DNA from: an uncultured Gammaproteobacteria bacterium
GTDB lineage: Bacteria; Patescibacteriota; Microgenomatia; UBA12405
Direction: 5' to 3'
DNA length: 64,000 nt
Assembly (NCBI GenBank): GCA_964503465.1
Contig: CAZCYZ010000001.1
Span: forward strand, 17,583-81,582
Shown: piece after piece, positions 11,760 through 53,382 of the stretch
How the letters are laid out: each line of letters begins with the position of its first letter
Numbering within the stretch: the stretch's first letter is position 1
Translations under genes and position numbers: made by a program
The notes under the pieces: model-generated
The model's input: the letters and a program-made list of their open reading frames with translations, nothing else
Told to the model about the DNA's origin: nothing
The model's database searches: none

Positions 11760-11829
11760 TGCGGGGTAGTGTACGGCTGCACGTGAGGCTCATAATCTCA
11801 CAGACCTGGTTCAACTCCAGGCCCCGCAA
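11760..11829 (+). tRNA. tRNA with CAU anticodon, 70 nt (Met/fMet candidate), U1-A72 first pair and short D-loop
   Basis: tgcgggg-ta-gtgt-acggct-gcac-g-tgagg-CTCATAA-tctca-caga-cctgg-ttcaact-ccagg-ccccgca-a. It is convergent with the other CAU tRNA. Confidence 0.55.
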
Positions 11830-12184
11830 ATAATTCCCACCACTGTTTCCAAGCTGGCTTCTTTACTACCTCGTTAACTTTGGGGTATAGGTTGAGATTT
11901 TTATCCTCCGGTGGCAACACCAACCAGTAATCATTCGATCCCCCAAGTCCCAGCTTGTCTCTGGCCTCTTGCTCCAAATACGCGCTACTGGTTGAATACT
12001 TAATCCTTTGGGTTAATTTTCGGTTTTCTTCAATCAACTTGTCAATTTTATCCTCATTTTCGGCTACTTTCTTGGTGGCTTCCCACAAATTCCCCCACTG
12101 TCTTATAAGGTTGACCCATATTGATATAGTTACCACCAATAACACCCAATCCAAAATTGACCTAAATAACCCTTTCTTCATCAT
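11830..12184 (-). CDS. FtsB/DivIC-like septum formation initiator (the annotated ORF extends to 11798 and would overlap the tRNA)
   Basis: N-terminal TM helix, coiled-coil (KIDKLIEENRKLTQRI) and EQEARDKLGLGG motif typical of FtsB/DivIC. Confidence 0.45.
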
Positions 12185-12220: not shown

Positions 12221-13093
12221 ATGTTTATGCCTGACCTATCATTAGAAAATGCCCTTGGCCTCTTCAGTAATCAACTAGCCAAAAAGGGTAAATCCAACAA
12301 TACCATTGTAGCCTACAAAGGTGATATCAACCAGCTCGCTGCCTATCTCCGTAGCCAGAATATTACCACCATTGATGCTATCGCTCCCAGCCATCTTGAC
12401 AGCTTCAAAAAGCACCTCATGGACAATGGCTACACTGCCAAATCAGTCTCCCGCAAATTAAACTCCATCAAAAATTTCTTCTCTTTTCTTAAGTCTGAGG
12501 GGGTTATTGTCTCCGACCCTTCCAGTACCATCAAACACCCCAAGTACGAAAACGATCTCCCCAAAGTTCTCAAACCCATCGAATATCGCTCTCTTCGTGA
12601 CGCCTGTAGAAATGACCTCCGAGCCACTGCCATCGTCGAGCTTATGCTTCAGGCTGGTCTTCGGATCAAGGAAATCGAAAACCTCCGTCTCGAAGATGTC
12701 AAAGACACCGAAGTCAACATTACTGCCTACGAATCTCATCCTGCCCGCAACGTCCCCCTCAACAACTCTGCCAAATCATCCCTTAAGCGCTATCTCGACG
12801 AGGGCCGTTTTGATTCAAAAGCTAAAAACGTTTTCGTCACCAAAACTGGTCGTCGTCTTTTGGCTCGAAACATTCGTTCCCTTCTTAATCGCTATTTTGA
12901 CAAAGCCGATATTAAGGACATTAAAGTTAATGACCTTCGCAATACCTTTATCGTTTTCCAGCTCAAATCCGGCGTTCCCATTGATGTTGTCTCTCAAGTT
13001 GTTGGTCACAAGCGTATCAGCACCACCGAAAAATACCTCGAACTCATCGATTCCAAAGAGGAATCCAAGGGCATCAAACTAAAAGAGCTTTAA
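12221..13093 (+). CDS. Tyrosine site-specific recombinase (XerC/XerD or integrase family)
   Basis: N-terminal SAM-like core-binding region. C-terminal catalytic motifs LRATAIVELMLQAGLRIKE, NDLRNTF, VGHKRISTTEKYLEL (R..H-R-Y). Confidence 0.8.
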   Translation: MFMPDLSLENALGLFSNQLAKKGKSNNTIVAYKGDINQLAAYLRSQNITTIDAIAPSHLDSFKKHLMDNGYTAKSVSRKLNSIKNFFSFLKSEGVIVSDPSSTIKHPKYENDLPKVLKPIEYRSLRDACRNDLRATAIVELMLQAGLRIKEIENLRLEDVKDTEVNITAYESHPARNVPLNNSAKSSLKRYLDEGRFDSKAKNVFVTKTGRRLLARNIRSLLNRYFDKADIKDIKVNDLRNTFIVFQLKSGVPIDVVSQVVGHKRISTTEKYLELIDSKEESKGIKLKEL

Positions 13094-13117: not shown

Positions 13118-13438
13118 ATGAGCCAACGATTTGTCATTGAGGCCGACAATACCAAATATCCTGCCGCCGTTGTCCGTGCGGCCATTGAAGCTGCCGAGCG
13201 GTACGATGTTTTGCAACGCCCTACTCAAGTTACTTTTGTCCCTGCCCACGATTTTGGTGACGGCAGGTTTGTTGTCCGAGTCACAGTTGATGGCACCGCT
13301 ACGATTGTTCACGACCATTTCCGTTCAGATGGTACTCCAATTGCTAGGGGTACGAGCAGAGTATTGCGAGCCGGAGAAACAAGTAAGTCTCCTGTTCTTG
13401 TTAGTTTCTCCCCCCGGCTCTCTATTTCCTCTAGATAA
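13118..13438 (+). CDS. Hypothetical protein
   Basis: 106-aa ORF with ordinary composition. The overlapping 13131..13658 ORF is low-complexity and probably spurious. Confidence 0.3.
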   Translation: MSQRFVIEADNTKYPAAVVRAAIEAAERYDVLQRPTQVTFVPAHDFGDGRFVVRVTVDGTATIVHDHFRSDGTPIARGTSRVLRAGETSKSPVLVSFSPRLSISSR

Positions 13439-13677
13439 TCAACCCCAAAGGAATCTAAAAGTAGTTACTATGCCCAAAGATCATCTCAAACCCACTCCCG
13501 ACCAAATCCTTCAAAGGCTCACCGTTTTATCTGGTGAAGCCGAAAACAAGTACCTGATGACCAAAGACAAAAAATGGTCTCGTGCCGCCAACAGTATCAA
13601 TCGAGCAGCACAAAAAATCAGCGCAAGTCCCGAATTCCAAGCTCAACGTCCCAAATAATTTTATAATCCCATTTTTA

Positions 13678-14211
13678 TCATCTCATAGCCCCGTAGGCCC
13701 TATCTCGATTCTCCCACCATAAAAGTTCCATAAAGATATTTCTTTTATCTCCTGGGTCAAAATTTGCCTCTAACCACCCTGAGTTATTTTCAACATTTTC
13801 ACTTCCTATCCCCTCCGCCATCCGTCTTAACGCTTCCGCAAAGAACGGTAATTGACCAGCTATACGTATGTCAGGTTCAACCATTGCGTATCTTGCTATG
13901 TCCTGCAATACGAGTGCCGTTGCATCTTCCAAACTCGCCACCGTAGTCACTTCGGTAAACATCTCTGCTGGTAATCTCTGGGCTAATTCCATTCCCCTTT
14001 CCCCAATTTTCCCTACCAACTCCTCGCGACTTGCTATCTTTGACAATTGTCCTCCCCATAGTCCTATGACACCGTTTTCAAATCCTCGCCATCCAGCGTA
14101 AACCCCAGCCTGGGTGGCATATCCGGGAACTCTATCCAAAAAATTTGTAACCGCTACTAATTCTGCAGATTTTGGAGGAAGTCTGTCTTTTGGTGGTTCG
14201 ACCATAATCAC
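13678..14211 (-). CDS. Hypothetical protein (same strand as, and closely spaced with, the downstream ATPase gene)
   Basis: 177-aa ORF with no recognised motif. It sits 31 nt from the start of the 14243..16573 gene. Confidence 0.35.
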   Translation of the reverse strand: MIMVEPPKDRLPPKSAELVAVTNFLDRVPGYATQAGVYAGWRGFENGVIGLWGGQLSKIASREELVGKIGERGMELAQRLPAEMFTEVTTVASLEDATALVLQDIARYAMVEPDIRIAGQLPFFAEALRRMAEGIGSENVENNSGWLEANFDPGDKRNIFMELLWWENRDRAYGAMR

Positions 14212-14242
14212 AGCTTAGCTTATAATCAGCCAAAATACAATC

Positions 14243-16573
14243 CTACAACCTCGCTCGCTTAGCAATTTCACTTTCTACAATCGCCCTTGGCCGGCCGTAT
14301 TTTAATGACGATAATTTCTTAATCATCTCAGCCATTTTGGGGTTCCCTGGTTTCTTTTTCTCCGCCGCCGCCACGTTAATCGAAAATGGTTTTTGTGGTG
14401 TTCCCTTTAGAAGTGTCTTCATATAAATTTCTCCCGTCCCCAAATTTAACAAATCATTCTCTCCAAACTCTGGCGAAAATTGTTTTACCAGGAATCCTGC
14501 ATCCGAAATCCCCACTCTAAAGCTAGCAATTGTTCCCACATTTCCAAAAACGGCATTTTTCACTTCGTCATCCATTTGGGAAATAAACTGGTTGGCCACA
14601 CACAAATTCAAATGATATTTTCGTGCCTCGCTCATAATCACCGCAAAGTCCTGAGTGGCAAAATTTTGAAATTCGTCCACATATAGATAAAAATCTCGCC
14701 GCTCTGCTTCCGGCGTGTCTTGTCGACTCATGGCCGCAATCAAAATTTTGGGAATCAACACCAACCCCAAGAAGGCCGAATTCTCCTCCCCAATTGTCCC
14801 TTTTGCAAGGTTAATTATCAAAATCTTTCCCTCATCCATTGCCTTCCGGAAGTTAAATGACGAAGTCGACTGACCGATTATGTTCCTCATCATCGTATTG
14901 GTAATAAATCGTCCAAACTTTGACACTATATAATCCAGTACTTCCGACTTGTGAAACTCGTTCGTTTGGGCAATCTGATCAGTCCAGTAACGTTTGACCA
15001 TTGGATCAGTTACCTTGGGTAGCATTGCCTGAACATATGATGGATCAGTCAAACATCGTACCACCTCAATAAACGTTGCCCCGGGCTCCATCATCACCGT
15101 CAACATAATATTTCTAATTGCATGTTCAAACCTGGGGCCAACAATCCCCGTTTTATACGGGTCGTACAGTTTATACATCAAGTTAATAATCGAACTTGTC
15201 ACAAAATCTTTTTGCTCGTCTCGATCACATTCCATTACATTAAAGCCCATCGGTCTCTCTGTCATTGACGGGTCAAAATAAATTACATCCTCAACTCTTT
15301 CCGGCGGGATTCGTTCCAGAATACTCTCGTAGGTGTCGTGTGGATCCACAAAGCAAACTCCCTTCCCGGCCTTAATATCCTGTAACGCCATATCGGCCAA
15401 CAGCCACGATTTACCCACTCCCGTTTGTCCCACGATATAAAAATGTCTTTGCCTATCAGTTTCCAGCATGCAAAACTTTTTTGTCACTCCACGGTACAAA
15501 TTATCTCCAATGTACAAGCCCTCCTGCGGGCTATCCACTGGTGCCGCCGCCTTTTTTGCCTTAAGCCAATAAATATTTGGTGTTTCAATTGTCTTGTTTG
15601 GGAAGTGGTAAATTGAGGCCAGTTCGTCGGTTGATAAAATTGTTTTGTTTTTCCACCAAAAAATTACTGGATATTTATAAATAAAATCTGTCATAAACAA
15701 ATGCTTTATCCTTATCTTCCTTCCAGACAATTTGTTCCATGGCGATTCAAGTTGACCAAAACAAGCCTTGATATTTCCAATATTCATTTTGGCCACTTCA
15801 GCCGATGGAGCGCAGGACACAATTCTGATTGCCGTCTCAAAACCAACCTTGCTACACTTTACCTCTACTGCCTCCAATTGTCTTGCGTCTACTTTATAAT
15901 TAGCCTTTTCAGGATTCGCTTCACTCTTTTTGGTTCCACTAATAAACCCTCGTCCACTTTTGGCCCACTCCCCATCAGTTGGTGATATCACCAACTGTAT
16001 CGCTACCGATTCACCCCTATCAAGTTTGGACAACGCTGAGGTAATCGATGATAACGGGTCAGTTGGAATTTCTTTATAAGTTTTTAGTGGATAAAACGGA
16101 GTTTTTTTGAGTCCTAGCCAGGCATATTCTACTTTCCCAGTTTCGGGGTAAATATTGGGTTCATCTACCACCCGTACGTCTGCTCCGGTGTAGGCACTAT
16201 AAATTTGTTTTTCCACCATGTCCTGATACTTTTGCGGCACACTAATATAAAAACGGATATCTTCGGCCGTCCCTACAATTTCCAGGGAGGCACTTTCTTG
16301 AGCCAAAAATCTTTGCAAAAACTTGAATCTAGCCGATTTGTACATACTCCCCAGGGAACTTAGTATTTGCTCCATCGCATCCACCTTCACCTCGTTGTCG
16401 TGTGGTAATGCTACTAATAGAGTCACTAATCCTAATGATTTCTTCTCTCGGTCTTTCCACCTATACCACAAGACCAAAGCATACCCCAATCCTCCCAACA
16501 ATATTCCCACCAGTGTTAATCCCATTAGCATCCAGATTAAGTTAGTCACCACCTGTTCTACTGTCTCAATCAT
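14243..16573 (-). CDS. Membrane-anchored P-loop ATPase of the VirD4/TraG-VirB4/HerA (AAA_10/DUF87) superfamily
   Basis: N-terminal TM helices. Walker A HFYIVGQTGVGKS, Walker B-like FYLYVDEFQNF. Length 776 aa. Domain order resembles type IV coupling/translocation ATPases. Confidence 0.55.
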   Translation of the reverse strand: MIETVEQVVTNLIWMLMGLTLVGILLGGLGYALVLWYRWKDREKKSLGLVTLLVALPHDNEVKVDAMEQILSSLGSMYKSARFKFLQRFLAQESASLEIVGTAEDIRFYISVPQKYQDMVEKQIYSAYTGADVRVVDEPNIYPETGKVEYAWLGLKKTPFYPLKTYKEIPTDPLSSITSALSKLDRGESVAIQLVISPTDGEWAKSGRGFISGTKKSEANPEKANYKVDARQLEAVEVKCSKVGFETAIRIVSCAPSAEVAKMNIGNIKACFGQLESPWNKLSGRKIRIKHLFMTDFIYKYPVIFWWKNKTILSTDELASIYHFPNKTIETPNIYWLKAKKAAAPVDSPQEGLYIGDNLYRGVTKKFCMLETDRQRHFYIVGQTGVGKSWLLADMALQDIKAGKGVCFVDPHDTYESILERIPPERVEDVIYFDPSMTERPMGFNVMECDRDEQKDFVTSSIINLMYKLYDPYKTGIVGPRFEHAIRNIMLTVMMEPGATFIEVVRCLTDPSYVQAMLPKVTDPMVKRYWTDQIAQTNEFHKSEVLDYIVSKFGRFITNTMMRNIIGQSTSSFNFRKAMDEGKILIINLAKGTIGEENSAFLGLVLIPKILIAAMSRQDTPEAERRDFYLYVDEFQNFATQDFAVIMSEARKYHLNLCVANQFISQMDDEVKNAVFGNVGTIASFRVGISDAGFLVKQFSPEFGENDLLNLGTGEIYMKTLLKGTPQKPFSINVAAAEKKKPGNPKMAEMIKKLSSLKYGRPRAIVESEIAKRARL

Positions 16574-16920
16574 TTTTCCTCTTTAAACACTACCTCTCCC
16601 TTTTTAATTTTAATCAATCGCCACACAAAGGTCGACAACCATCTCCCCGCTTCTTCAATTTTTTTCTTAAATCCATCACCAAAAGCCTTCCTGGTTACTG
16701 GCAGTACTATTTTTGGATTTTGCGGTTGTGTTGGGGTCAACAACGGCTGACCGGTGTCATCAGTCACCGTTGTTGTTTGAGCCTTTTCCACTTTTCTCAT
16801 CCAGGTTTCCACTTCTGGTGGCAATTTTTCCTCATCTCTAATCTTGTCAAGATCCCTAATCTCAAATTCTGGTTTCGTTACTTCTACTGGCGTCGTCAAT
16901 CTTTCTTTGCTTTCGGTCAT
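16570..16920 (-). CDS. Hypothetical protein, translationally coupled (4-nt overlap) to the ATPase gene
   Basis: 116-aa charged protein. ATGA overlap with the downstream gene. Confidence 0.35.
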   Translation of the reverse strand: MTESKERLTTPVEVTKPEFEIRDLDKIRDEEKLPPEVETWMRKVEKAQTTTVTDDTGQPLLTPTQPQNPKIVLPVTRKAFGDGFKKKIEEAGRWLSTFVWRLIKIKKGEVVFKEEK

Positions 16921-16941
16921 ATCAAACAGTATAGGCTAACA

Positions 16942-18117
16942 ATGCTACAATTTCACTACATGCCTTCTACTTTTAGTTCTATTCGATCCATTGACAATAC
17001 TCGTCGTCAGGCCCCATTTATCACCATCCTTCTTGTGGCTTTGTTAATTGTCATCGCAATCTGGTTTTTCCGTGGTGGCAGTTTCCGTCTTTACGCTAGT
17101 GCTTTTTTTGGTCTTTACTTTATTACTCGTCAGGTTTGGGTTTCTGTTTTGCTCATCGGCATTTTGCAAAACATTATTTTTCTTCCTCTTCGCTTTATCG
17201 GTCTCAAACTTTCTACCTCACTCAAACAATTCGAAGATGAACTCGAGAATGTCAAAAGTGAAAGCCAGCAATATTTTCTCTTCACTCAAAAAGTTCGCCG
17301 TGGTGACCCAGCTATTGTCTTTTTTATTTTCAACTTTGTTGTTAATGCTATTGCTTTTTTTTCGGCCGGTCGTATCTTCTTAATCGATTTTTATTCCCAA
17401 GAACTTGATTCCAGTTATCTTTACAGTTTTATTCCTTACCCCCAATATCCCCTACAAGGAACCAACTTTTATTTTCCATTTTTTAAAATCACTAACACTG
17501 TTTCTCTACCCTGGTCCAAAATTCTTCTTATCTGGTTAGTTATCAGTCTTGGCTTTGCTATCCCTAAATTTCTTTGGCGCTTTGTTAAACCACTATTGTG
17601 GAGGAATCAACAAGTCTTAGGGGCCCGCATTAACTATAATCGTCTTTTGTTAATCACCGGCGGTTTCAGTGGCACTGTTTTTGTCCTCTCACTTTTCCTG
17701 CTTCGTCATATCCCTGTCGGATTTGAGGGTTGGCTTCTTATGGCTGATCTTACCCGTCAAAACACTACTATGAATTTCATTACTGCCATTGGTACCTTCA
17801 TCACCACTCTCCATGCCGGTTACACCCACAGTTCTTTAGTTGCCTCAGAAGCTCGCCACAGTGCTATACCCGAAAACATCATTTCCCGTGTCTTTCGCAG
17901 TCAAATGCGTCAATCTTTCAAAAATGCTCTTATTTTAGGTATTGGTGCTTTCTTGGTTACTAACCACATTCCTTGTGCCTTCGAGCTTTCTGTTGCCACT
18001 TTCGAGGTCCTCTATATTCTTTCTCCCTACACCTTCAACCGTCTTCTCCCCAAACCCGCTCCGGTAGTTACCGCCACCGAGACCGAATCAAATATTTCCA
18101 CCAAAAAAACCGACTAA
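16942..18117 (+). CDS. Polytopic integral membrane protein (start uncertain)
   Basis: More than 8 predicted TM helices. Divergent from the ATPase cluster with only a ~20-bp spacer. No motif recognised. Confidence 0.4.
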   Translation: MLQFHYMPSTFSSIRSIDNTRRQAPFITILLVALLIVIAIWFFRGGSFRLYASAFFGLYFITRQVWVSVLLIGILQNIIFLPLRFIGLKLSTSLKQFEDELENVKSESQQYFLFTQKVRRGDPAIVFFIFNFVVNAIAFFSAGRIFLIDFYSQELDSSYLYSFIPYPQYPLQGTNFYFPFFKITNTVSLPWSKILLIWLVISLGFAIPKFLWRFVKPLLWRNQQVLGARINYNRLLLITGGFSGTVFVLSLFLLRHIPVGFEGWLLMADLTRQNTTMNFITAIGTFITTLHAGYTHSSLVASEARHSAIPENIISRVFRSQMRQSFKNALILGIGAFLVTNHIPCAFELSVATFEVLYILSPYTFNRLLPKPAPVVTATETESNISTKKTD

Positions 18118-27991: not shown

Positions 27992-28012
27992 GGGCTATTC
28001 TACCACTGAGAC

Positions 28013-28279
28013 TCATTGAACTATGTCACTTTCAAATACCACTCCGGGTACTGTTATCTGTCCTATTATGTCAATAGTCTCCAGTCTGTGCCCCGTTCCC
28101 CTGGTGGTTGGGCTTCGTGGGTGATTCAGATGGCTGTTCACCGCCATTATTATCGACGCCCTGTCAGTTAGTTTCCCATAGTCATCAGCGATTACTCTTT
28201 GACAAGTAACACAATGTATTCTTCTTTGTGGTCTCCGTTCTTTGTTTTCATCTCCCATAGGTCGTATATTAGCAGACAA
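28013..28279 (-). CDS. Hypothetical protein (possible JAMM/RadC-like remnant)
   Basis: 88-aa ORF. AVNSHLNHPRSPTT weakly resembles the HxHP..S JAMM motif. Confidence 0.2.
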   Translation of the reverse strand: MSANIRPMGDENKERRPQRRIHCVTCQRVIADDYGKLTDRASIIMAVNSHLNHPRSPTTRGTGHRLETIDIIGQITVPGVVFESDIVQ

Positions 28280-28410
28280 ATGTACAAATTAGTGGCTTTT
28301 GGGTCAGTGTTATTCTATAATCAATCCTAACTTTTGCACCTTTTACAACCCACATTACTTCAGTTTTAGTTTAAAACTTCAAATTTTAAATTAAAAATTG
28401 AATAAATATT

Positions 28411-28462
28411 CCCCTGTAGCTCTCCGCCAGCTGGCGGACGGTAGAGGCTCGCCTGTTAAAAT
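28411..28462 (+). pseudogene. Partial tRNA-Asn (5' portion to anticodon loop) with a 16-bp palindrome inserted in the D-loop
   Basis: cccctgtagctc-TCCGCCAGCTGGCGGA-cggtagag-g-ctcgcctgttaa, then diverges. The intact tRNA-Asn is 310 bp downstream. Confidence 0.5.
28416..28444. repeat. 29-bp perfect direct repeat, left copy, containing the 16-bp perfect palindrome TCCGCCAGCTGGCGGA
   Basis: gtagctctccgccagctggcggacggtag is identical to 28718..28746. Confidence 0.85.
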
Positions 28463-28467
28463 TAAGT

Positions 28468-28746
28468 GTGTATATCGTTTACGCGATTTACCACCCAAAA
28501 TCAGGAAAAATCTATATAGGTCAAACAGTCGACCTAGGTAATAGATTAAGGGAACATAACGATCCTAACTGCCAGCGCCATTTATATACCAAGAGGATCG
28601 GGATCGGCTGGGAAGTTCTTTATAAGGAAACTCAGCCGACCAGACAGCTTGCCTTAAAGCGAGAAAAACAGTTAAAAAGTTATCAAGGCAGATTGTTCAT
28701 TAAAAAACACATTACAGGTAGCTCTCCGCCAGCTGGCGGACGGTAG
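28468..28746 (+). CDS. GIY-YIG nuclease family protein (UPF0213/YhbQ-like, 92 aa, GTG start)
   Basis: VYIVYAIYHPKSGKIYIGQTVDLGNRLREHN matches GIY-YIG with the conserved Arg and His-Asn. The C-terminal 9 codons are encoded by the right direct repeat, and the stop is the last triplet of that repeat. Confidence 0.65.
   Translation: MYIVYAIYHPKSGKIYIGQTVDLGNRLREHNDPNCQRHLYTKRIGIGWEVLYKETQPTRQLALKREKQLKSYQGRLFIKKHITGSSPPAGGR
28718..28746. repeat. 29-bp perfect direct repeat, right copy
   Basis: Identical to 28416..28444. It is followed by a degenerate anticodon-stem-like sequence ggcaccgcctgtaat. Confidence 0.85.
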
Positions 28747-28772
28747 GGCACCGCCTGTAATACTCAATACAT

Positions 28773-28845
28773 TCCCCTGTAGCTCAGTCGGTAGAGCGCT
28801 CGCCTGTTAAGCGATCGGTCCGTGGTTCGAGTCCACGCGGGGGAG
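28773..28845 (+). tRNA. tRNA-Asn (anticodon GUU)
   Basis: tcccctg-ta-gctc-agtcggta-gagc-g-ctcgc-CTGTTAA-gcgat-cggtc-cgtgg-ttcgagt-ccacg-cggggga-g is a complete cloverleaf. No encoded CCA. Confidence 0.8.
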
Positions 28846-28947
28846 CAAGCAAAATATATCCTAAAGATACGTAACAAATGTTTCTATGGTATGGCAAGAG
28901 TGACAAGTATATAATGTGGTTAATCAATAATTAAATTACTCAAATCC

Positions 28948-29973
28948 ATGTCTCCTCAAAAAGAAAAAATAGTTACCTCAGAACCGGATCTTCCAATTGA
29001 TCGTTTACGTTTAGCCTTCCGCCTTCAAGAAAGAGTCGAAGAAATCGACCAGGCTTTAGAAATAGCGGCACGGCCAAAGGATGTTTTAGGATTCGATGGT
29101 GCCCAGCCCGCCACCTTAAACGAGTTTCATCAACTTCGTGAAGCATATCAAGCGAGGTTGGATCAATCTCTCGCAAGTATGGATCCTTCTACTCGCGAGC
29201 AGTATGAGGCTATTTCTACGGCACGTCAGACTGCCAGAGAGGAAGAAGATAGTAGGGTACAAGCCTATCTAAAAGACCATTTTGGTGTCGATTGGGTCGA
29301 AACAGGTAGAACGCGGTTTGAGTGGAAACGTGAACATCCCCTTAATGTTGATACCGAATTGAATCCTGGTCATACCTGGGAGCAATATGAGGTAACACCA
29401 GAAGTCATGGCTGAAAAGGCTAGATTGTCTATGGAATTGTCACTCGTCTTATATGTCAGCCAACTTGCCACCGATCCCAGAGATCGTGTTGCATTTGATT
29501 TGAGCCAAGAAGCCTCTCAGGATTTACAGCGTATTTCTAAATGCCTAATGATACAAACGAATCGCATGCTGACGACTAATGGTGAGCAAAGAGACAGAAT
29601 CAGGCGGTTTGAAGATGTTGCCTGGAACTTTCGCAGAGAGACTGATGGGTTTTATCGGGCATTCGAACAAATCGCCGGAGATTCTATTTTCGAACCATAC
29701 AAGAAAGAGGAACCTCCAACAGAAGGCACCAAAATTGAGGAAGAACCTGCAGAAGTTAAATTCTATACCAGAGAATGTCCTCACTGTCAGGTTCAGTTTC
29801 ATAGCCGAAAAGCCGAGGGAAAATGCTACAATTGCACCCTTGACGAAATTACCCACGGGAATCCTCCCGAGGAAGGTGACTTTAACTCTGCCGGCATTAT
29901 ATCCGGTACACTCACAGATGAAGAGTGGAAAAATCTTCAAGCCGATCTGGCTGCAGTTGAGCTGGGTAGATAG
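28948..29973 (+). CDS. Hypothetical protein with C-terminal zinc-ribbon (CPHC...CYNC)
   Basis: 341-aa ORF. Higher GC than the flanking genome. C-terminal CxxC...CxxC. Confidence 0.4.
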   Translation: MSPQKEKIVTSEPDLPIDRLRLAFRLQERVEEIDQALEIAARPKDVLGFDGAQPATLNEFHQLREAYQARLDQSLASMDPSTREQYEAISTARQTAREEEDSRVQAYLKDHFGVDWVETGRTRFEWKREHPLNVDTELNPGHTWEQYEVTPEVMAEKARLSMELSLVLYVSQLATDPRDRVAFDLSQEASQDLQRISKCLMIQTNRMLTTNGEQRDRIRRFEDVAWNFRRETDGFYRAFEQIAGDSIFEPYKKEEPPTEGTKIEEEPAEVKFYTRECPHCQVQFHSRKAEGKCYNCTLDEITHGNPPEEGDFNSAGIISGTLTDEEWKNLQADLAAVELGR

Positions 29974-30036
29974 TTCTGCTCCCATTCTTCCATCCAAATG
30001 CTATTCTATCGGTGAGTTTTTGTGGATATAACTGTT

Positions 30037-30070
30037 TCGAATGTTCTCCATCTCGTGGAGCATTGTGACC
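30037..30070. promoter_or_regulatory. Conserved palindromic upstream motif, copy 1 (tttcgaatgttctccatctcgtggagcatt)
   Basis: Near-inverted repeat AATGTTCTCCA / TGGAGCATT about 100 bp upstream of the 30141 start. A second copy lies at 30615..30648. Confidence 0.45.
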
Positions 30071-30140
30071 TCATATTTATAAATAAATCTGTGGCGATAT
30101 ATGTTTGAATTGAAGTTGCTAAACAGTTTATAATCACCTT

Positions 30141-30590
30141 ATGAAAGATGAATCATTAGTAATTACTGATTGGGATATGGATTATGCCGATCTCTCGCAG
30201 AGGGATGAGTATGAGGAACTTAAAGCCCAAATTACTGAAGTCTACGGTACACCAGAACGTGATTCAGTAGATTGGCAAGCGTGTCTTGATGCCACGCTAC
30301 TTGCCGTTTACCGTTCAGAAGTATCTCGTTGTCAAAGTCATGTTGTATCACCACCTGGATCAGAGACGGAAGAAGTCAGGCCGGCTGTTTTGGAGTCACA
30401 TCTTCGCATCGCTGAACAAAGATTAGCGATACACCTGGATCGTGTTGATCAAAGATGCTTGCAACCAGAATATGATACCGCTTTCGAACTTGCTGGCAAA
30501 AAATTAGACAAAGTATCCGAAGGTAATCCATACGCTGATATGTTTGTTCTTGCTCACTTAGGTGCTGGGTCGGTTCAGTTGGTAAGATAA
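30141..30590 (+). CDS. Hypothetical protein
   Basis: 149-aa ORF. TATAAT hexamer ends 6 nt before the ATG (tataatcaccttATG). Confidence 0.4.
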   Translation: MKDESLVITDWDMDYADLSQRDEYEELKAQITEVYGTPERDSVDWQACLDATLLAVYRSEVSRCQSHVVSPPGSETEEVRPAVLESHLRIAEQRLAIHLDRVDQRCLQPEYDTAFELAGKKLDKVSEGNPYADMFVLAHLGAGSVQLVR

Positions 30591-30614
30591 TCTAGAATTT
30601 GGAGAGCAGTAATT

Positions 30615-30648
30615 TTTCGAATGTTCTTCGTTCCGTAGAGCATTAAGT
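30615..30648. promoter_or_regulatory. Conserved upstream motif, copy 2 (tttcgaatgttcttcgttccgtagagcatt)
   Basis: Shares TTTCGAATGTTCT...GAGCATT with copy 1. Lies ~120 bp upstream of the 30769 start. Confidence 0.45.
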
Positions 30649-30768
30649 AACACCAAAAATTCTAAAATCATTCCACTCCTCGAGCCAGCAAAATATTTCC
30701 GAAGAATACGTACATTAACTCATGACACATAGTTTAGTAGAAGTGTTGTTCACTGCTATAATCATCCT

Positions 30769-31602
30769 ATGAACATAACCGCCGACACCAAAGTCATTGC
30801 TCGTCTTCATACCAAACCCAGTCCCAGAGGTCTTAATATCTATAATCCATTCTTTCAAGAATCTAATCTCAATGCTGTCTATCTACTCTTTTTTAACCCT
30901 GACCCGGCTCCTCTTATTTCAGCCATGCGTGGGTTTAATATCGCCGGAGCCATCACAGCCGGATTTGAGTCGGATGACAGACTTCCATCTCTTTTGGATG
31001 AAGTCGATGACGTTTCTGCCTACACGGGTCGAGTCGGGTTCATCACTAATAATGGTGGGAAATTAATCGGATCATCACAAGGTGGTCAGGGATTACTAAG
31101 ATCTATCCTCAAACATGGCCATATTGAAAATAAGAAACTTGTTATAGTCGGTTCTGGCAATATCGCCAAAGGATTGTTGTTTAACATAAAAAAACAGTTT
31201 CCTGATCCTCCCGAAGTAGTTCTAGTTAACCGCACAATTGAAAAGGCGCTATCCATTCAAAGAGATTTTTCATTTGTCACTTCCACCAAGTCAGTCACTG
31301 ATCTGTCTACCGAAACTGGTGATATTTTAGTTAATGCTACTGATATTGGTGGCAGTCAAGCTGACGATGTTTACACCGAATCAATCGTTGGCAACTTTCA
31401 GACGATAGCCGATGTCACTTTTGAAACCGAGAACACTAATCTGGTTAATCTGGCTAAGAAATTGAATAAACAATTCTCAACCGGCTGGGATATGTTTGCT
31501 TATCAAGGCCAGGTTATTCTCGAAAGTATCTTTCATACAGGCATTGATATTGGTTCGCTCAGAAAGCATGTTGTAAGTGGATTATCAGAAGTTGTTTCTT
31601 AG
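30769..31602 (+). CDS. Shikimate/quinate 5-dehydrogenase-like protein (AroE family)
   Basis: N-terminal substrate-binding domain resembles the AroE family. NAD(P)-binding region has VIVGSGNIAKG (Rossmann glycine motif) and VNRT...DILVNATDIG. Confidence 0.55.
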   Translation: MNITADTKVIARLHTKPSPRGLNIYNPFFQESNLNAVYLLFFNPDPAPLISAMRGFNIAGAITAGFESDDRLPSLLDEVDDVSAYTGRVGFITNNGGKLIGSSQGGQGLLRSILKHGHIENKKLVIVGSGNIAKGLLFNIKKQFPDPPEVVLVNRTIEKALSIQRDFSFVTSTKSVTDLSTETGDILVNATDIGGSQADDVYTESIVGNFQTIADVTFETENTNLVNLAKKLNKQFSTGWDMFAYQGQVILESIFHTGIDIGSLRKHVVSGLSEVVS

Positions 31603-31644
31603 TTTATGCCCGTGTAATTTAGGCATTCGATAGCTAATCAACAT

Positions 31645-32757
31645 ATGTCCGAGAATCCTCAGTCAATAGTCAGTCGAGAAAAACCACCAGTTGACCTATT
31701 GGCCGACGAAGTTGTCAGATTAAGAGAATCACTCGAAAGACGTGGCGAACAATTGGGTTTTTCCAACATCCTAGCTTTGTCTTATGTTGTCGAACTTTAT
31801 TCTAGCGTTAATGGTCAACAATCCCTAGTGGAGTGGTTTCGTGACCCAAAATCTGACGAAGAAATTTTTACTCTTCAACAATCAGTGGACTTAGGACATG
31901 TACTCGAAAATGCCAATAGGTTATCGGCCATTCATGGGATAACTCCTCCTCCGTTATCTACCGATCTTACTGTTCCCCAAGATCAATTGGCTATTCCCAG
32001 GACACCCGCCCAAGTTGATCAAGAGATTCTCGATGCTACTGAAACCTTACCCGGTGAACGTCTAATTACCCTTTTTCGCTATGTTGATACCGTTGGTTGG
32101 AGAGATGACACCCAGTCCATGGAGCCAGATGAGATTAGATCATTTATGGATGAACCGTCTAATCAGGTAATCAATCACGCTCGAGGCTTACGATTTCCCG
32201 TGGCAAGTATTGAGGACGCTCGAGGCATTAGACATGAATCGTTATTTGCTCTTAGCCAGCTAATTACATATCCAAGATTTGTTTTGGATAGAACTGATGA
32301 TGTTGTTTATTCCGGATTAGTCAATGAACCAAGACACCTTGACATCCTTCGTGAACACTTACTCCTCTCGGAAAGGGAGTCACTGGCTCGCTCTGTTCAA
32401 AGGGCTGACAAAGTTGTTGCTTTTACCTCCGCATCAGTTGGTAGTCAAGGTCTATGTAATTGGGGATTTTTTTGTATTGAAATGCAGGTCCCAGAGAGAT
32501 TAATTCTCAATGTTCGAGACTTGTGTATTCAGGGCGATGAAGTTATGGGTGACAACGATGGAGTTGATCCGGACACACGACAGAGACTATCACTCTCAAT
32601 TCATTCCTACCCACCTCCACTAGAAACTTATCAAAGTGTTGGCGGTATTCACCTAGACGAAATGGCTGTTCTTGGGGGTATTAGGCGAGAGTGGGTAAGG
32701 TCTGTCATCGACATTAGGGACCAATCAATTGTGTGGCAGAAATCGTCAGACAAGTAA
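31645..32757 (+). CDS. Hypothetical protein
   Basis: 370-aa ORF with no recognised motif. Confidence 0.4.
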   Translation: MSENPQSIVSREKPPVDLLADEVVRLRESLERRGEQLGFSNILALSYVVELYSSVNGQQSLVEWFRDPKSDEEIFTLQQSVDLGHVLENANRLSAIHGITPPPLSTDLTVPQDQLAIPRTPAQVDQEILDATETLPGERLITLFRYVDTVGWRDDTQSMEPDEIRSFMDEPSNQVINHARGLRFPVASIEDARGIRHESLFALSQLITYPRFVLDRTDDVVYSGLVNEPRHLDILREHLLLSERESLARSVQRADKVVAFTSASVGSQGLCNWGFFCIEMQVPERLILNVRDLCIQGDEVMGDNDGVDPDTRQRLSLSIHSYPPPLETYQSVGGIHLDEMAVLGGIRREWVRSVIDIRDQSIVWQKSSDK

Positions 32758-32842
32758 TTTTCTATCTACCCCTTGCTGTGTCGTTGTTCGTCCAAATATA
32801 ATACGATTATAGCCTATAACATGATATAATCCCATTCATATT

Positions 32843-33484
32843 ATGCCCGTAACTATTGAACAAGTTGGCCATGCTTGGGATGGTCTGACTGCCGAGGATC
32901 ATGCTTATGGTCAAATTGTCGCCACTGGTATGGCCGCTATCCTTGAATCGCGTGGATATGGTCATGATGCCGGGCCAATTTGGCAAACCATTGGTGTCAG
33001 TCAGGAAGTTCAACTTAGACTTGACCCACAGGAGACATTTACTAGGGCAATTGAGTTAGTTATGTTGAATGATGGTGGCGATCCCGACTCTCAACAGTTT
33101 GTTCAATGGCTTCAGGGCAATGGCCTTCAACAACTTACCGATCCTCGATTGACGCCTTACCTTGAACCTTATCTTGCTACTTCTGACAGCACCCCGTTTG
33201 TTAATCGACTTCTAAGTTTTGTCAATCATCCCATTCCTTATGATCAAATATCTACCAAGCACGACCTTGGCTATTTTCCTCAATGTTACCTAACCTTTAT
33301 TTCTGTCCTACTCGCTTCACGTCTTAGTGGTGCTGGCAACACCGAGTTGATTACTCGCCTTAGGGAAGCATCATCAGAATTACTCACTACTCCTGACTTT
33401 CAAAGAATTGTTGGTCTCTATGCTACTATTACCGACACTCGGCAATTTGCCGAACAATTATCAATCTCTACATTTAATGCCTAA
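32843..33484 (+). CDS. Hypothetical protein
   Basis: 213-aa ORF. A TATAAT lies 14 nt upstream of the ATG. Confidence 0.4.
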   Translation: MPVTIEQVGHAWDGLTAEDHAYGQIVATGMAAILESRGYGHDAGPIWQTIGVSQEVQLRLDPQETFTRAIELVMLNDGGDPDSQQFVQWLQGNGLQQLTDPRLTPYLEPYLATSDSTPFVNRLLSFVNHPIPYDQISTKHDLGYFPQCYLTFISVLLASRLSGAGNTELITRLREASSELLTTPDFQRIVGLYATITDTRQFAEQLSISTFNA

Positions 33485-34010
33485 AGATCGTTTATATGGC
33501 CTTCCCGTACGTACTAAGGTCGTCAAAATAACTCAAGGTTGGCACGGTCCGTTTAGTCATCAGGATCTCGGCGGTGGTCGAACAGATATGACCTTTGCTG
33601 TTGATTTTAGTGCCGAAGAAGATACCCCGGTTGTAGCCGCCAGAGCTGGTAAACCCAGAATTGTTGTCGATCATCACCAAAGCCACTACGAAGGTGATGA
33701 CCCAAAAATAGGTTTAGCCGTTAACACCACCAATCTGGTGATTATCGAGCATCGAGATGGCACCGAAGTGGAATATACAGTCTATTCTCACCTTAAGCCA
33801 GGCAGTGTGCCAGAAAAAGTTAAAAACGGACAAATGGTTGATGAGGGAGAACAAATAGGTCTATCTGGAAAAAGTGGTTGGGTTCCTGTGCCCCATGTTC
33901 ATTTCCAGGTTTTGTCTCGTAAATCTCCAGATCAAAGATTAAGAAGTCGCCCAGTACGTTTTAGGGGTTATAACGGTCCACTGGAAGACGATAAGATTAG
34001 AGGAAAATAA
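33480..34010 (+). CDS. M23-family (lysostaphin-like) metallopeptidase domain protein (start uncertain; the annotated ORF starts at 33408)
   Basis: HQDLGGGRTDMTFAVDF, GEQIGLSGKSGWVPVPHVHFQV. HxxxD and HxH are typical of the M23 family. Confidence 0.55.
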   Translation, partial: PKDRLYGLPVRTKVVKITQGWHGPFSHQDLGGGRTDMTFAVDFSAEEDTPVVAARAGKPRIVVDHHQSHYEGDDPKIGLAVNTTNLVIIEHRDGTEVEYTVYSHLKPGSVPEKVKNGQMVDEGEQIGLSGKSGWVPVPHVHFQVLSRKSPDQRLRSRPVRFRGYNGPLEDDKIRGK

Positions 34011-34044
34011 CATCCTTATAACATTTCAAATGCTATAATTACCC

Positions 34045-34350
34045 ATGACCATTGAAGCTACTAAACGCCAAATCGGTATATCTAGGGTCTTTGATGTCTT
34101 AGCCAAAGTCCATATTGAAAAACATTTACCAGGAGAGGTTCCGGTACTACGTCAACTACAGTGGGAAAACCCAGGGTCTGCCGATGCTAGATTGTTAAGT
34201 ACAGTTATTACCTTAAGACAACAAGGCAAAATGCCCGATGCTCGCACTATGTGGGCTGATGCAGAGAGAATGTACGATCTGCCTGTCGATAGACAAGGAG
34301 ATGCTTATCTTGCTTACCACCAGAGAGTATTTAGCGATCAATCAAAATAA
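34045..34350 (+). CDS. Hypothetical protein
   Basis: 101-aa ORF. TATAAT ends 6 nt before the ATG. Confidence 0.35.
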   Translation: MTIEATKRQIGISRVFDVLAKVHIEKHLPGEVPVLRQLQWENPGSADARLLSTVITLRQQGKMPDARTMWADAERMYDLPVDRQGDAYLAYHQRVFSDQSK

Positions 34351-34355
34351 TAATT

Positions 34356-34844
34356 ATGGCAAAAACTGAATTTGCATCTGAACTACGTCGATTAACTGAG
34401 AAACATGGACCAAAACTTGGCCTAAAGCCGAATGAAGTTGTTGGTGCGGTTATGGTTTGGCCGTCTAAAGCGGACATGCGACGATTTCAGGAAGGCATAC
34501 CGGAAGAATTATTAGCCCTCAAGGAGCTTAAGGCCGTTCAAGAAACTGGACAAGTCGTTGCTGAATTAAACGCTGGCAATATCCCACTTACTCGAGAACA
34601 AATTCAAAGGCTATCGCCACGAAGAGGAGTTGGAATTCGTATTCTTTGGAGTCTAAGTACTGGCGAGGATACTGCCACAATAAATGAAGAATTGGATGGT
34701 GGTACTAGACGAGGTATCAGAACTCGAGTTCTCACTGATACAGAAAAACAATCAGTCGGTATTCTCGATGACGTTGTTACCGTCACTACCCTTCGATTAC
34801 GTCCTGATAGTCCTATTCTTAGAAAAGTCAAACCAGCATCTTAA
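34356..34844 (+). CDS. Hypothetical protein
   Basis: 162-aa ORF, 5 nt after the previous stop. Confidence 0.35.
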   Translation: MAKTEFASELRRLTEKHGPKLGLKPNEVVGAVMVWPSKADMRRFQEGIPEELLALKELKAVQETGQVVAELNAGNIPLTREQIQRLSPRRGVGIRILWSLSTGEDTATINEELDGGTRRGIRTRVLTDTEKQSVGILDDVVTVTTLRLRPDSPILRKVKPAS

Positions 34845-34958
34845 AAATTTCATCCACACAATGACTGAAAAAACCCAATGGTTATTTGATAGAAGTAAAT
34901 TAATGCGTGGTGCATCTCCAGTTACTCTAGAGGTCGAACTTACCCCCCAGAACTGGCT

Positions 34959-35240
34959 TTGTTAGAAGAAATTCGGGCCCTCGAAGATAGTCCTGAAGTT
35001 GGCCACAGTGTTGCTTCGGGTTCTGGATATATGAGGCAGTATGAAACAGAAAAACGAGCCCCCTTTGGTTATCGTTTGACCAGACCAAGGGGAGAGGTTT
35101 TGGCTGACGCCAGAGCCAGTCGTGATTATCTTCGTCAAAATCTCGCGGGAATTGATAGACAGTCATCTGAATGTTCTACTCAAGTTAGGGGAATCATCTC
35201 CAGACTAAACAAAGTGCTTGGCGAGGAAGAAGATAAATAA
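34959..35240 (+). CDS. Hypothetical protein
   Basis: 93-aa ORF. Weak. Confidence 0.25.
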   Translation: MLEEIRALEDSPEVGHSVASGSGYMRQYETEKRAPFGYRLTRPRGEVLADARASRDYLRQNLAGIDRQSSECSTQVRGIISRLNKVLGEEEDK

Positions 35241-35301
35241 TCCGTCACCCACTTCCTCATACCTGTACTATTCATTCGGGGGAGCCCAGTATAATATACT
35301 C

Positions 35302-35727
35302 ATGAAACGTGTCATCTCTGCCGGTGGAATAATCACCAAAATAGAAAACGATCAGCTCAAGATTTGTCTTGTCCGATTAAGACCTCCAATGAAGGGTTAT
35401 GTTTTTCCCAAAGGTCATGTTGAATTGGGTGAAACTTATGAACAAACTGCCCTCCGAGAGGTGGCCGAAGAAACCGGATTGTCTAATTTAACTATCAAAC
35501 AGAAGTTGGGCGTTGTTCAAAGACAATCAACTGAAAACGACGGCACTCAAGTGACTAAGAATATTCATCTTTATTTGATGACTACCGATAGTTTTCAGCA
35601 TAACCAATCAGACGAAAGATATGAATGGTTTACTATTGACGAGGCTCTCAAAGCTCTTAATTTTATTGAAGAAAAAGAGTTCTTATTCAAAAACAGAGAT
35701 CAAATTTGCGACTCCGATCAGCTCTAA
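35302..35727 (+). CDS. NUDIX hydrolase
   Basis: Nudix box GHVELGETYEQTALREVAEETGL (GX5EX7REUXEEXGU). The start was taken at MKRV, with a TATAAT ending 8 nt upstream. Confidence 0.7.
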   Translation: MKRVISAGGIITKIENDQLKICLVRLRPPMKGYVFPKGHVELGETYEQTALREVAEETGLSNLTIKQKLGVVQRQSTENDGTQVTKNIHLYLMTTDSFQHNQSDERYEWFTIDEALKALNFIEEKEFLFKNRDQICDSDQL

Positions 35728-35750
35728 ATCTCCACCACTCCCCGAGCACC

Positions 35751-35787
35751 AAAAATCCCCTCCATCACGGAGGAGATTTTAGTTTTT
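35751..35787. terminator. Bidirectional intrinsic terminator
   Basis: aaaaa-tcccctcc-atcac-ggaggaga-tttt, lying between convergent genes. Confidence 0.45.
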
Positions 35788-35799
35788 GTAAACAGAACT

Positions 35800-36162
35800 T
35801 TACTGGCTGTTGTTCATTCCACAACCTCTACCACTCCCATTTCCTCGCCCCATTCCATATTTGGCTCTAAAAGCATTCAATAGGGTAGGGTCACCTTTTT
35901 GAGCCGTCAGTTGAGCTGTCGCAAACTCTTTGAAGTTAGATTCGTTGACGAATCGAGTGGCACCACGTCCGGCCATATTGGCGACCCAGGCTTTGTAATC
36001 ACCTTTTTGAAAGGCAGTCACGTTGACAGTGTGTCTGGCTTCTGTGTAATTAGGGCCACGAACTGTGGCATCACCACGATAAGCAAGAACCGGGGCAAAT
36101 GATTTAACAGCTACTAAGCCCAGTGCTATCGCGGCGATACCAAGAGCAATTTGAGTTTTCAT
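35800..36162 (-). CDS. Small secreted hypothetical protein
   Basis: Signal-peptide-like N-terminus MKTQIALGIAAIALGLVAV. Gly/Arg-rich C-terminus. Confidence 0.35.
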   Translation of the reverse strand: MKTQIALGIAAIALGLVAVKSFAPVLAYRGDATVRGPNYTEARHTVNVTAFQKGDYKAWVANMAGRGATRFVNESNFKEFATAQLTAQKGDPTLLNAFRAKYGMGRGNGSGRGCGMNNSQ

Positions 36163-43182: not shown

Positions 43183-43545
43183 TTGATGAACGATAAAGTT
43201 GCAAAATACATCCAAAAACAGCCACCTCTTCAAGCAGAAATATGCCGCCACTTAAGGCAGATGATTTTAGTCAATTTCCCCAAAATCAAAGAAACCGTTA
43301 TGTCAGAAGGTTTGTGGTATGAAGGGAAGTTTTATATAATTTCATTTGTTGACCATGTAAATCTGGGTGTAGGAATAAATGGACTAAACACAGAAGAATT
43401 GAAACAACTCGCAGGCAAAGGAAAGTTTATGAGGCATATTAAATTATTTTCCCCTGAAGATGTCAATCAAGAAAAATTGCTTCCACTGATGCGGTTGGTT
43501 TATAAAAAAACCAAATGTACCTGTCAAATTAGTTGGAAAGATTAA
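43183..43545 (+). CDS. DUF1801 (YdhG-like) domain protein
   Basis: KVAKYIQKQPPLQAEICRHLRQMIL is the family N-terminal signature. Confidence 0.45.
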   Translation: MMNDKVAKYIQKQPPLQAEICRHLRQMILVNFPKIKETVMSEGLWYEGKFYIISFVDHVNLGVGINGLNTEELKQLAGKGKFMRHIKLFSPEDVNQEKLLPLMRLVYKKTKCTCQISWKD

Positions 43546-46892: not shown

Positions 46893-47069
46893 CTTCTCTC
46901 TTCAACTCGAATTATAATCGAAGCCTAACCTTTTGTATAATTCATCAATGTGGACTTGTCCCGTCTGCCGTCGGCTCTTTGAAAAAGCCAAAGAATCCTA
47001 TCACCTAAAAGACAATTCATAATTTCTTAAAAAAGAATCGGCCATTTTCTTGTATCATTAATCTAACCG

Positions 47070-53380: not shown

Positions 53381-53382
53381 CT

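Follow-up and report, generated by a model that had tools for sequence, protein, structure and literature searches.

A candidate domesticated type IV coupling-protein-family ATPase and its small upstream gene on a Candidatus Shapirobacteria chromosome

We have analysed a 64-kb stretch of DNA (hereafter the window), a chromosomal segment of Candidatus Shapirobacteria (Patescibacteria/candidate phyla radiation, Microgenomates), with a focus on a two-gene operon that encodes a 116-aa protein and a 776-aa membrane-anchored ATPase. With a probability of about 0.5, we consider that this operon encodes the Shapirobacteria version of an ATPase of the type IV coupling protein (T4CP) family that has been domesticated on the chromosome throughout Patescibacteria. 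The main rival is exaptation of the ATPase to a nucleic-acid role independent of any type IV secretion system (T4SS). Patescibacteria rely on their hosts for nucleotides and other building blocks, and the passage of macromolecules across their envelope forms the background to this work.

Architecture and family of the ATPase

The 776-aa protein is composed of a transmembrane (TM) helix (residues ~7-37), a domain resembling the VirB4 N-terminal domain (NTD; residues 48-345, Pfam DUF8128) and a VirD4/TrwB-type P-loop domain (~350-740). In the AF2 model (pLDDT 91.2), the P-loop domain carries an all-helical insert (~453-581) between Walker A and Walker B. Both Walker motifs named in a preliminary description of this DNA are present (GQTGVGKS, residues 382-389; YVDEFQNF, residues 631-638), with their key residues G382, G385, G387, K388, D633 and E634 being invariant in 56 homologues. 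Several N-terminal TM helices had also been described, of which we found one (a hydrophobic stretch at 7-37 and a single predicted helix at 2-47). Because the flank of this helix is acidic on the N side and basic on the C side, an N-out, C-in orientation is suggested, with the bulk of the protein in the cytoplasm.

The structure comparison figure was highest for the VirB4 C-terminal domain (4ag5; 30.0), followed by the DptH C-domain (29.1), TrwB (27.5), HerA (25.2), DotL (24.4), Cag-beta (22.1) and FtsK (17.2). For TrwB, 362 of its 420 residues aligned with the ATPase. Two hallmarks of T4CPs were found, namely the VirD4/TrwB-type P-loop domain with its Walker A and B motifs and the all-alpha insert in the nucleotide-binding domain. 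In canonical T4CPs, the TM segment, usually of two helices, leads straight to the ATPase domain; here, the 300-residue domain with the VirB4-NTD fold intervenes between the membrane anchor and the ATPase domain. The 776-aa protein also displays the pairing that characterizes VirB4, a VirB4-type N-terminal fold followed by a C-terminal ATPase fold. Identity with FtsK/SpoIIIE, which calls for a motor with a gamma winged-helix domain and a four-TM N-terminus, was rejected, as was identity with HerA, which calls for a HerA central domain behind an N-terminal HAS-barrel and for a partner nuclease such as NurA.

In Pfam, the window ATPase matched DUF87 (E 2.2e-7), TraG-D_C (E 1.4e-4) and TrwB_AAD_bind (E 0.045), with P-loop_TraG (E 0.0073) falling below the cut-off. 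NCBIfam returned sub-threshold matches alone (TraD, CedD and VirD4-like models), the match to the archaeal DNA-translocating ATPase CedD (E 3.3e-7) being far under its cut-off, and PADLOC returned mad8 (E 1.1e-14) plus HerA models. When 56 family members were searched, TrwB_AAD_bind matched 49, TraG-D_C 45 and T4SS-DNA_transf 27, and none matched VirB4-specific Pfam models. The family profile compared with PDB sequences placed TrwB (5.7e-8) and DotL (3.7e-6) first. The sequence-level assignment of the family points to coupling proteins. This agreed with the preliminary description, which had seen in the protein an ATPase of the type IV secretion/conjugation type: profiles and structure comparison both placed it in the VirB4/VirD4 branch and not with FtsK, the best matches in the comparison of FtsK with T4SS families being of the T4SS type.

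DUF8128 (PF26449) and DUF87 (PF01935) occurred in that order in the identical database copy (P0001) and in all 120 listed relatives, with the PF26449 assignment taken from the precomputed Pfam annotation of database copies and of called genes in related loci. A literature search on DUF8128, and on DUF87 with Patescibacteria, found nothing. Some family members have C-terminal extensions of up to 1,000-2,000 aa and others, of ~1,440 aa, have a C-terminal ATPase domain (P0135-P0267); one family member also matched the T4SS_pilin Pfam model.

Full-length homologues of the ATPase, with ~25% identity, were recovered by tblastn from plasmids of Bacillus and others, mostly monoderm bacteria and archaea. 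On two Bacillus subtilis plasmids, the homologue is followed by genes for a "replication-relaxation" protein, several small proteins, a "conjugal transfer protein," a TcpE-family protein, a VirB4-like ATPase of ~850 aa and a large transfer protein. We take this to be the gene order of ICEBs1, with the homologue in the coupling-protein (ConQ) position. Aligned by hhalign, the family profile and the plasmid homologue gave a probability of 100 (E 4.5e-55) over 668 columns that included the N-domain, whereas the ConE-like VirB4 ATPase of the same plasmid gave a probability of 3%.

With the VirB4-like fold of its N-domain and the sequence-level assignment to T4CPs, the protein is therefore a hybrid, which combines a VirB4-like N-domain with an ATPase domain of the VirD4/TrwB type and its all-helical insert. 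It is unlikely, in our view, that the protein is instead a second, divergent VirB4-type assembly ATPase serving pilus or channel biogenesis, with the small protein as a VirB3/TrsD-like component. The translationally coupled small gene upstream of the ATPase does recall the virB3-virB4 gene order. However, the family gave 0 of 56 matches to VirB4-specific Pfam models against 27-49 of 56 to T4CP models, and it has no sequence similarity to the ConE-like VirB4 on the Bacillus plasmids that bear both proteins. Moreover, the small protein lacks the TM segment that VirB3 has, and the small proteins are unrelated between classes. A TrsD-VirB4 pair is already found elsewhere in the Shapirobacteria genomes tabulated in PMC12102498.

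Distribution, small upstream gene and gene neighbourhood

An exhaustive HMMER search with the ATPase family retrieved 21,133 representative clusters (E≤1e-3), of which 5,309 remained at E≤1e-30. The best 120 matches were all 77-90% identical, those with a name being from Shapirobacteria or Patescibacteria, and identity across classes was ~40%. The matches listed in a scan of species-representative genomes comprised 84 loci (L001-L084), and the locus counts given below refer to these. They were from Shapiro-, Levy-, Woese-, Roizman-, Curtiss-, Davies- and Collierbacteria and, further, from Dojkabacteria, WWE3, Saccharibacteria, Berkelbacteria and several Parcubacteria groups. A conjugation-type coupling ATPase is present in almost every Patescibacteria genome, on the chromosome, in about one copy each and away from secretion genes.

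A comparable picture emerges from the cited parts of the survey by Quinonero-Coronel et al. (2025), in which 5,713 T4CP homologues were reported in 2,918 Patescibacteria genomes, with 148 of them near virB4 (PMC12102498). For the roughly ten genomes of its Table S3 considered here, there was mostly one t4cp1 (VirD4-type) match, unlinked to virB4, plus one or two t4cp2 (FtsK-like) matches. Two listed Shapirobacteria genomes had TrsD-VirB4, VirB2 and VirB3 elsewhere on the chromosome. One draft genome scored as VirB4-negative had a t4cp1 match, yet TrsD and VirB3 were also present. Relaxases were described as rare in Patescibacteria, and the authors suggested that the T4CP may be exapted (PMC12102498).

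The 116-aa gene was confirmed to be translationally coupled to the ATPase gene, as its TGA stop overlaps the ATPase ATG start (ATGA). Its product is acidic in the N-terminal half and basic in the C-terminal half, lacks a TM segment and contains a strongly amphipathic helix (residues 86-105). In two Shapirobacteria-type relatives its identity was 48-73%. Homologues of the 116-aa protein were encoded directly upstream of the ATPase in at least 18 loci (iterative search) or at least 21 loci (BLAST clustering), where every ATPase shared 53% identity or more with the window protein, and many of the small genes overlapped the ATPase start.

A small open reading frame (ORF) lies directly upstream of the ATPase, overlapping it or a few bp away, in most Patescibacteria classes. 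These small ORFs fell into at least five families without detectable relationship, including one in Parcubacteria (motif WLKxIPGVNKFFLEQEAKIK), one or two in Saccharibacteria (motif DLIEKEWVxKAK...DPY) and one in Dojkabacteria. Common ancestry of the small proteins across classes was considered and rejected, since hhalign found none; the Microgenomates and Dojkabacteria proteins alone resembled each other weakly at the C-terminus (probability 18.5%).

The small gene is the only one of the three partners proposed in the preliminary description that travels with the ATPase (features are given in Table 1). The 177-aa ORF had been described as preceding the ATPase; in the direction of transcription it comes after it, with a spacer of 31 bp. 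Among 5.8 billion proteins, it had no homologue except itself. It is not found at the same position in close relatives, and a 90%-identical relative has unrelated ORFs in that space. Scans for repeats and terminators around this ORF revealed no mobile-element signature beyond chance. Two putative plus-strand ORFs of 106 and 62 aa (13118-13658) lie in the same variable slot, with no family match except one marginal PHROG (E 0.0011).

The divergent membrane protein had been described as encoded ~20 bp away with more than eight TM segments. The divergent gene does start ~21 bp from the start of the small gene, but the hydropathy scan gave ~6-7 hydrophobic segments. The 465-aa form of this ORF is an over-extension from a TTG that overlaps the small gene; in the database copy and in relatives the protein has 391 aa, starting at the ATG at 16942. 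Its family had 351 matches, all to hypothetical proteins with no Pfam domain, against more than 3,700 matches for the ATPase. The named relatives are from Shapirobacteria or Woesebacteria, and the family appears confined to Shapirobacteria and their close relatives. The gene adjoins the ATPase in just 6 of the 84 loci, where the ATPases are the nearest homologues (Shapirobacteria-type). On visual inspection, an early TM segment in the 391-aa protein (VLLIGILQNIIFLPLRF), together with the amphipathic stretch behind it, is reminiscent of the first TM and coiled region in insertases of the YidC type; the protein had no match among Pfam or NCBIfam models. Searches of Pfam, NCBIfam, PHROGs and PADLOC gave no match for the 116-aa, 177-aa or 391-aa protein. 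The 177-aa ORF and the membrane protein are neighbours and not conserved components of the ATPase unit.

Table 1. Features of the ATPase locus, with positions in the window.
Feature	Position	Strand	Basis and remarks
776-aa membrane-anchored ATPase	14243..16573	-	ORF and motifs
116-aa small partner	16570..16920	-	ORF; homologues directly upstream of the ATPase in at least 18-22 Microgenomates-type loci
Promoter-like site GTGAAA-17-TATACT	16928..16956	-	Consensus match alone; just upstream of the small gene
177-aa ORF (175 aa from ATG)	13678..14211	-	ORFan; in the slot of variable length that separates the ATPase from the convergent xer
391-aa polytopic membrane protein	16942..18117	+	ATG start 16942; divergent neighbour
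XerC/D-type tyrosine recombinase (Phage_integrase, SAM_1)	12221..13093	+	Convergent with the ATPase operon; context, partnership not demonstrated

The promoter-like site falls within the first codons of the divergent membrane-protein gene.

The preliminary description had taken all four genes as a module that could be part of a translocation apparatus. A self-contained, Ced-like or competence-like apparatus formed by the ATPase, the 116-aa protein, the 177-aa protein and the divergent membrane protein is very unlikely. The genes are tightly packed and the ATPase has the weak CedD match (E 3.3e-7, far below the cut-off); an ATPase with small proteins and a multi-TM protein presumably resembles Ced-like or competence-like systems in outline, which we take as a lead only. 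Poor conservation largely refutes the proposal: no homologue exists for the 177-aa ORF, whose slot in close relatives is either empty or otherwise filled, the membrane protein (351 family members, no Pfam domain) adjoins the ATPase in only 6 of 84 loci, and the neighbours in other classes are quite different. The examined flanks hold no other secretion gene.

Downstream of the ATPase, a convergent XerC/D gene and then a DivIC gene were found in the window and in 19-22 of the Microgenomates and Dojkabacteria loci, with Xer always being convergent (22 loci). In relatives, the gap between ATPase and xer ranged from -6 to 3055 bp and was filled by unrelated or ORFan sequences. Other recurrent neighbours of the ATPase were DnaX (Parcubacteria), GyrB with ComM (Saccharibacteria) and ribonucleotide reductase (Woesebacteria), and DnaG and sigma-70 genes lie a few kb from the ATPase in the window.

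The tyrosine recombinase next to the ATPase, with a variable slot between the two genes, could suggest that the locus is left over from an integrated conjugative or mobile element, or that the ATPase is a defence protein of the HerA/DptH type beside an integrase. The PADLOC matches (mad8, E 1.1e-14, and HerA models) and the homologues on plasmids and in large Bacillus phages would fit such an origin, which we nevertheless regard as the least probable of the readings considered. The base composition of the ATPase region is that of the surrounding chromosome and no defence partner genes are present. Because the ATPase-Xer-DivIC order is conserved across many genomes, the recombinase looks like a housekeeping Xer. 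In addition, the ATPase gene is near-universal and strongly conserved, and SEML1_0293, its probable orthologue in Southlakia epibionticum, is reported as a core, Patescibacteria-enriched family in the cited data of PMC10633639.

Possible roles of the ATPase

By analogy with TrwB, VirD4 and DotL, a domesticated T4CP-family ATPase would probably form a membrane-associated ring. This ring would probably use ATP to recruit a macromolecular substrate (DNA, nucleoprotein or protein) and push it to a membrane channel, most plausibly a monoderm-type T4SS encoded elsewhere on the Patescibacteria chromosome. The upstream small protein may serve the ATPase as an accessory factor particular to each lineage, either as adaptor or as regulator, and in principle would act as CagZ does on Cag-beta.

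Several observations weigh against the assignment to a domesticated T4CP. We know of no canonical T4CP with a VirB4-like N-domain, and the window ATPase itself is weak against the T4CP Pfam models (TraG-D_C, E 1.4e-4; TrwB_AAD_bind, E 0.045). No T4SS or relaxase gene was found in the ATPase flanks, either in this window or in the 84 loci, and no VirB3/TrsD, VirB6 or VirB8-type gene was clustered with the ATPase in the neighbourhoods of the examined loci. Because no T4SS gene or relaxase lies near the ATPase gene, the link between ATPase and T4SS is one that we infer and not one that is shown. Classical conjugative DNA transfer is unlikely because relaxases are rare in Patescibacteria.

The last of these observations comes from transposon sequencing (Tn-seq) of Southlakia epibionticum by Wang et al. 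(2023), in which the T4SS was essential and, in the portion cited here, its cluster had no recognisable coupling protein (PMC10633639). SEML1_0293, annotated as a T4SS DNA-binding-domain protein, is a probable orthologue of the window ATPase, as judged from domain positions, Pfam matches, its annotation and the cited discussion in PMC12102498. It was non-essential at all three time points, with normalised reads of 5817, 2940 and 1372, respectively, when T4SS genes were essential (PMC10633639). Thus, the essential T4SS function in Southlakia does not need SEML1_0293.

Exaptation of a housekeeping motor is a real possibility, although at clearly less than even odds. The ATPase would then have a T4SS-independent nucleic-acid job at the membrane, such as segregation or dimer resolution, repair, or uptake of host DNA or RNA, with the small protein setting specificity. 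Its neighbours across classes are DNA-replication and cell-division genes (XerC/D with DivIC, DnaX, GyrB with ComM, DnaG with sigma-70). The gene is chromosomal, with one t4cp1 match in most of the Table S3 genomes considered, and the protein keeps ~40% identity across classes and 77-90% in the closest relatives. As far as the cited parts of PMC12102498 go, virB4 is not nearby, relaxases are rare and exaptation is raised by the authors themselves. The non-essentiality of SEML1_0293, set beside an essential T4SS (PMC10633639), is also compatible with exaptation.

On the other hand, Southlakia has an essential canonical FtsK with a gamma domain, SEML1_0096 (PMC10633639), and a t4cp2/FtsK-like match is listed for Shapirobacteria (PMC12102498), so that a replacement of FtsK by the ATPase is not needed. 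Such a replacement, considered for the Xer/DivIC neighbours, was rejected, as FtsK was a much weaker structural match and an essential FtsK is present in Southlakia. Xer is convergent and not co-transcribed with the ATPase, and the synteny is limited to some classes. Core-gene neighbourhoods are weak functional evidence in such tiny genomes, and the nearest relatives with an interpretable gene context are found in conjugation operons.

In a bolder reading, the Patescibacteria-wide DUF8128-DUF87 protein would be a coupling-type ATPase that has retained a VirB4-like N-domain, maybe an evolutionary intermediate between VirB4 and VirD4, domesticated as a membrane-anchored nucleic-acid motor that acts free of the T4SS, e.g., in the import or processing of host DNA or RNA or in chromosome handling at division, with fast-diverging small partners, specific to each lineage, setting substrate or regulation. 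We offer this tentatively and hold it to be doubtful.

Other features of the window and comparison with known systems

A second 776-aa ORF in the window (47070-49400) was considered as a paralogue of the ATPase and rejected; it is unrelated and encodes an fn3 surface-type protein. With a protein of 1,116 aa (CarboxypepD_reg, CARDB), it makes up a pair of large surface-type proteins at 43542-49400, which is followed at 51809-55281 by genes for a lactate permease and, in tandem, two GH130 mannoside phosphorylase-like proteins. Surface proteins, transporters and glycoside phosphorylases account for the other large ORFs that were tested in the window.

The stretch at 28001-36000, which begins just after tRNA-Asn (28773-28846), has a GC skew of about zero, compared with -0.13 to -0.32 over the 28 kb before it. 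The tabulated ORFs at 28948-35727 are nearly all on the plus strand, and three of four tested had no Pfam match. This stretch may be an acquired island. ARAGORN called a tRNA-Met at 11760-11829 (+), in overlap with the 3' end of the minus-strand DivIC-family ORF (11798-12184). Either this tRNA is a false call or the DivIC ORF does not really have the 3' end listed for it.

The closest catalogued class is that of the orphan T4CPs (t4cp1/VirD4-type) of Patescibacteria, of which the window ATPase is very probably a member. According to the cited parts of PMC12102498, these are, like the ATPase gene, chromosomal, far from virB4 and without a relaxase nearby. They share with the ATPase family the matches to TrwB_AAD_bind, TraG-D_C and DUF87, with the ATPase domain at residues ~360-790, and SEML1_0293 is a probable example. 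No accession was found to be common to the ATPase family and the KKQ accessions of the 2025 table, in the part of it compared. The orphan T4CP class was already known, and the locus is an ordinary member of a catalogued family.

Three points seem to be novel: DUF8128 is VirB4-like, the family is linked to ATPases in the coupling position on Bacillus plasmids, and a small, fast-evolving gene keeps its place upstream even though its families are unrelated from class to class. In its cited sections, PMC12102498 treats the proteins purely as T4CP matches, and the VirB4-like N-domain, the small gene and the housekeeping neighbours are not mentioned there. The three points give concrete experimental handles, and two false partners are removed from the proposed module for annotation.

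TrwB, VirD4 and DotL, which were the best PDB profile matches, have in common with the ATPase a RecA-like domain with an all-helical insert and an N-terminal anchor. The window protein differs in that its single TM helix is separated from the ATPase domain by a VirB4-NTD-like domain of 300 residues, and in that no T4SS or relaxase is encoded alongside. VirB4/TrwK is similar to the ATPase in total length. However, the ATPase has no sequence-level membership in that family and no VirB3, VirB6 or VirB8 neighbours, and related genomes have a separate true VirB4. As for Cag-beta with its small regulator CagZ (PDB 8dol), the likeness of the 116-aa protein to CagZ is a possible analogy of role alone.

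Proteins of large Bacillus phages (phage G gp156 and SPO1 gp27.4; PHROG 5156) are full-length homologues of the ATPase, N-domain included. The match to phrog_5156 had an E of 7.3e-87, the phage homologues were 22-24% identical over 54-87% of the query, and Foldseek gave an E of 4e-47. In SPO1, a row of very small ORFs (gp27.5 to gp27.7) precedes the gp27.4 gene.

The "DUF87 domain-containing protein" of Bacillus plasmids (e.g., NZ_CP032854.1 and NZ_OX419568.1) shares with the ATPase the same two-domain architecture and full-length homology. The plasmid proteins have 886-913 aa, no N-terminal TM helix and long acidic C-terminal tails, whereas the window ATPase has 776 aa and a TM helix. Finally, the plasmid gene is followed by the replication-relaxation gene and a full transfer set; the Patescibacteria gene lacks these and has a small upstream partner instead.

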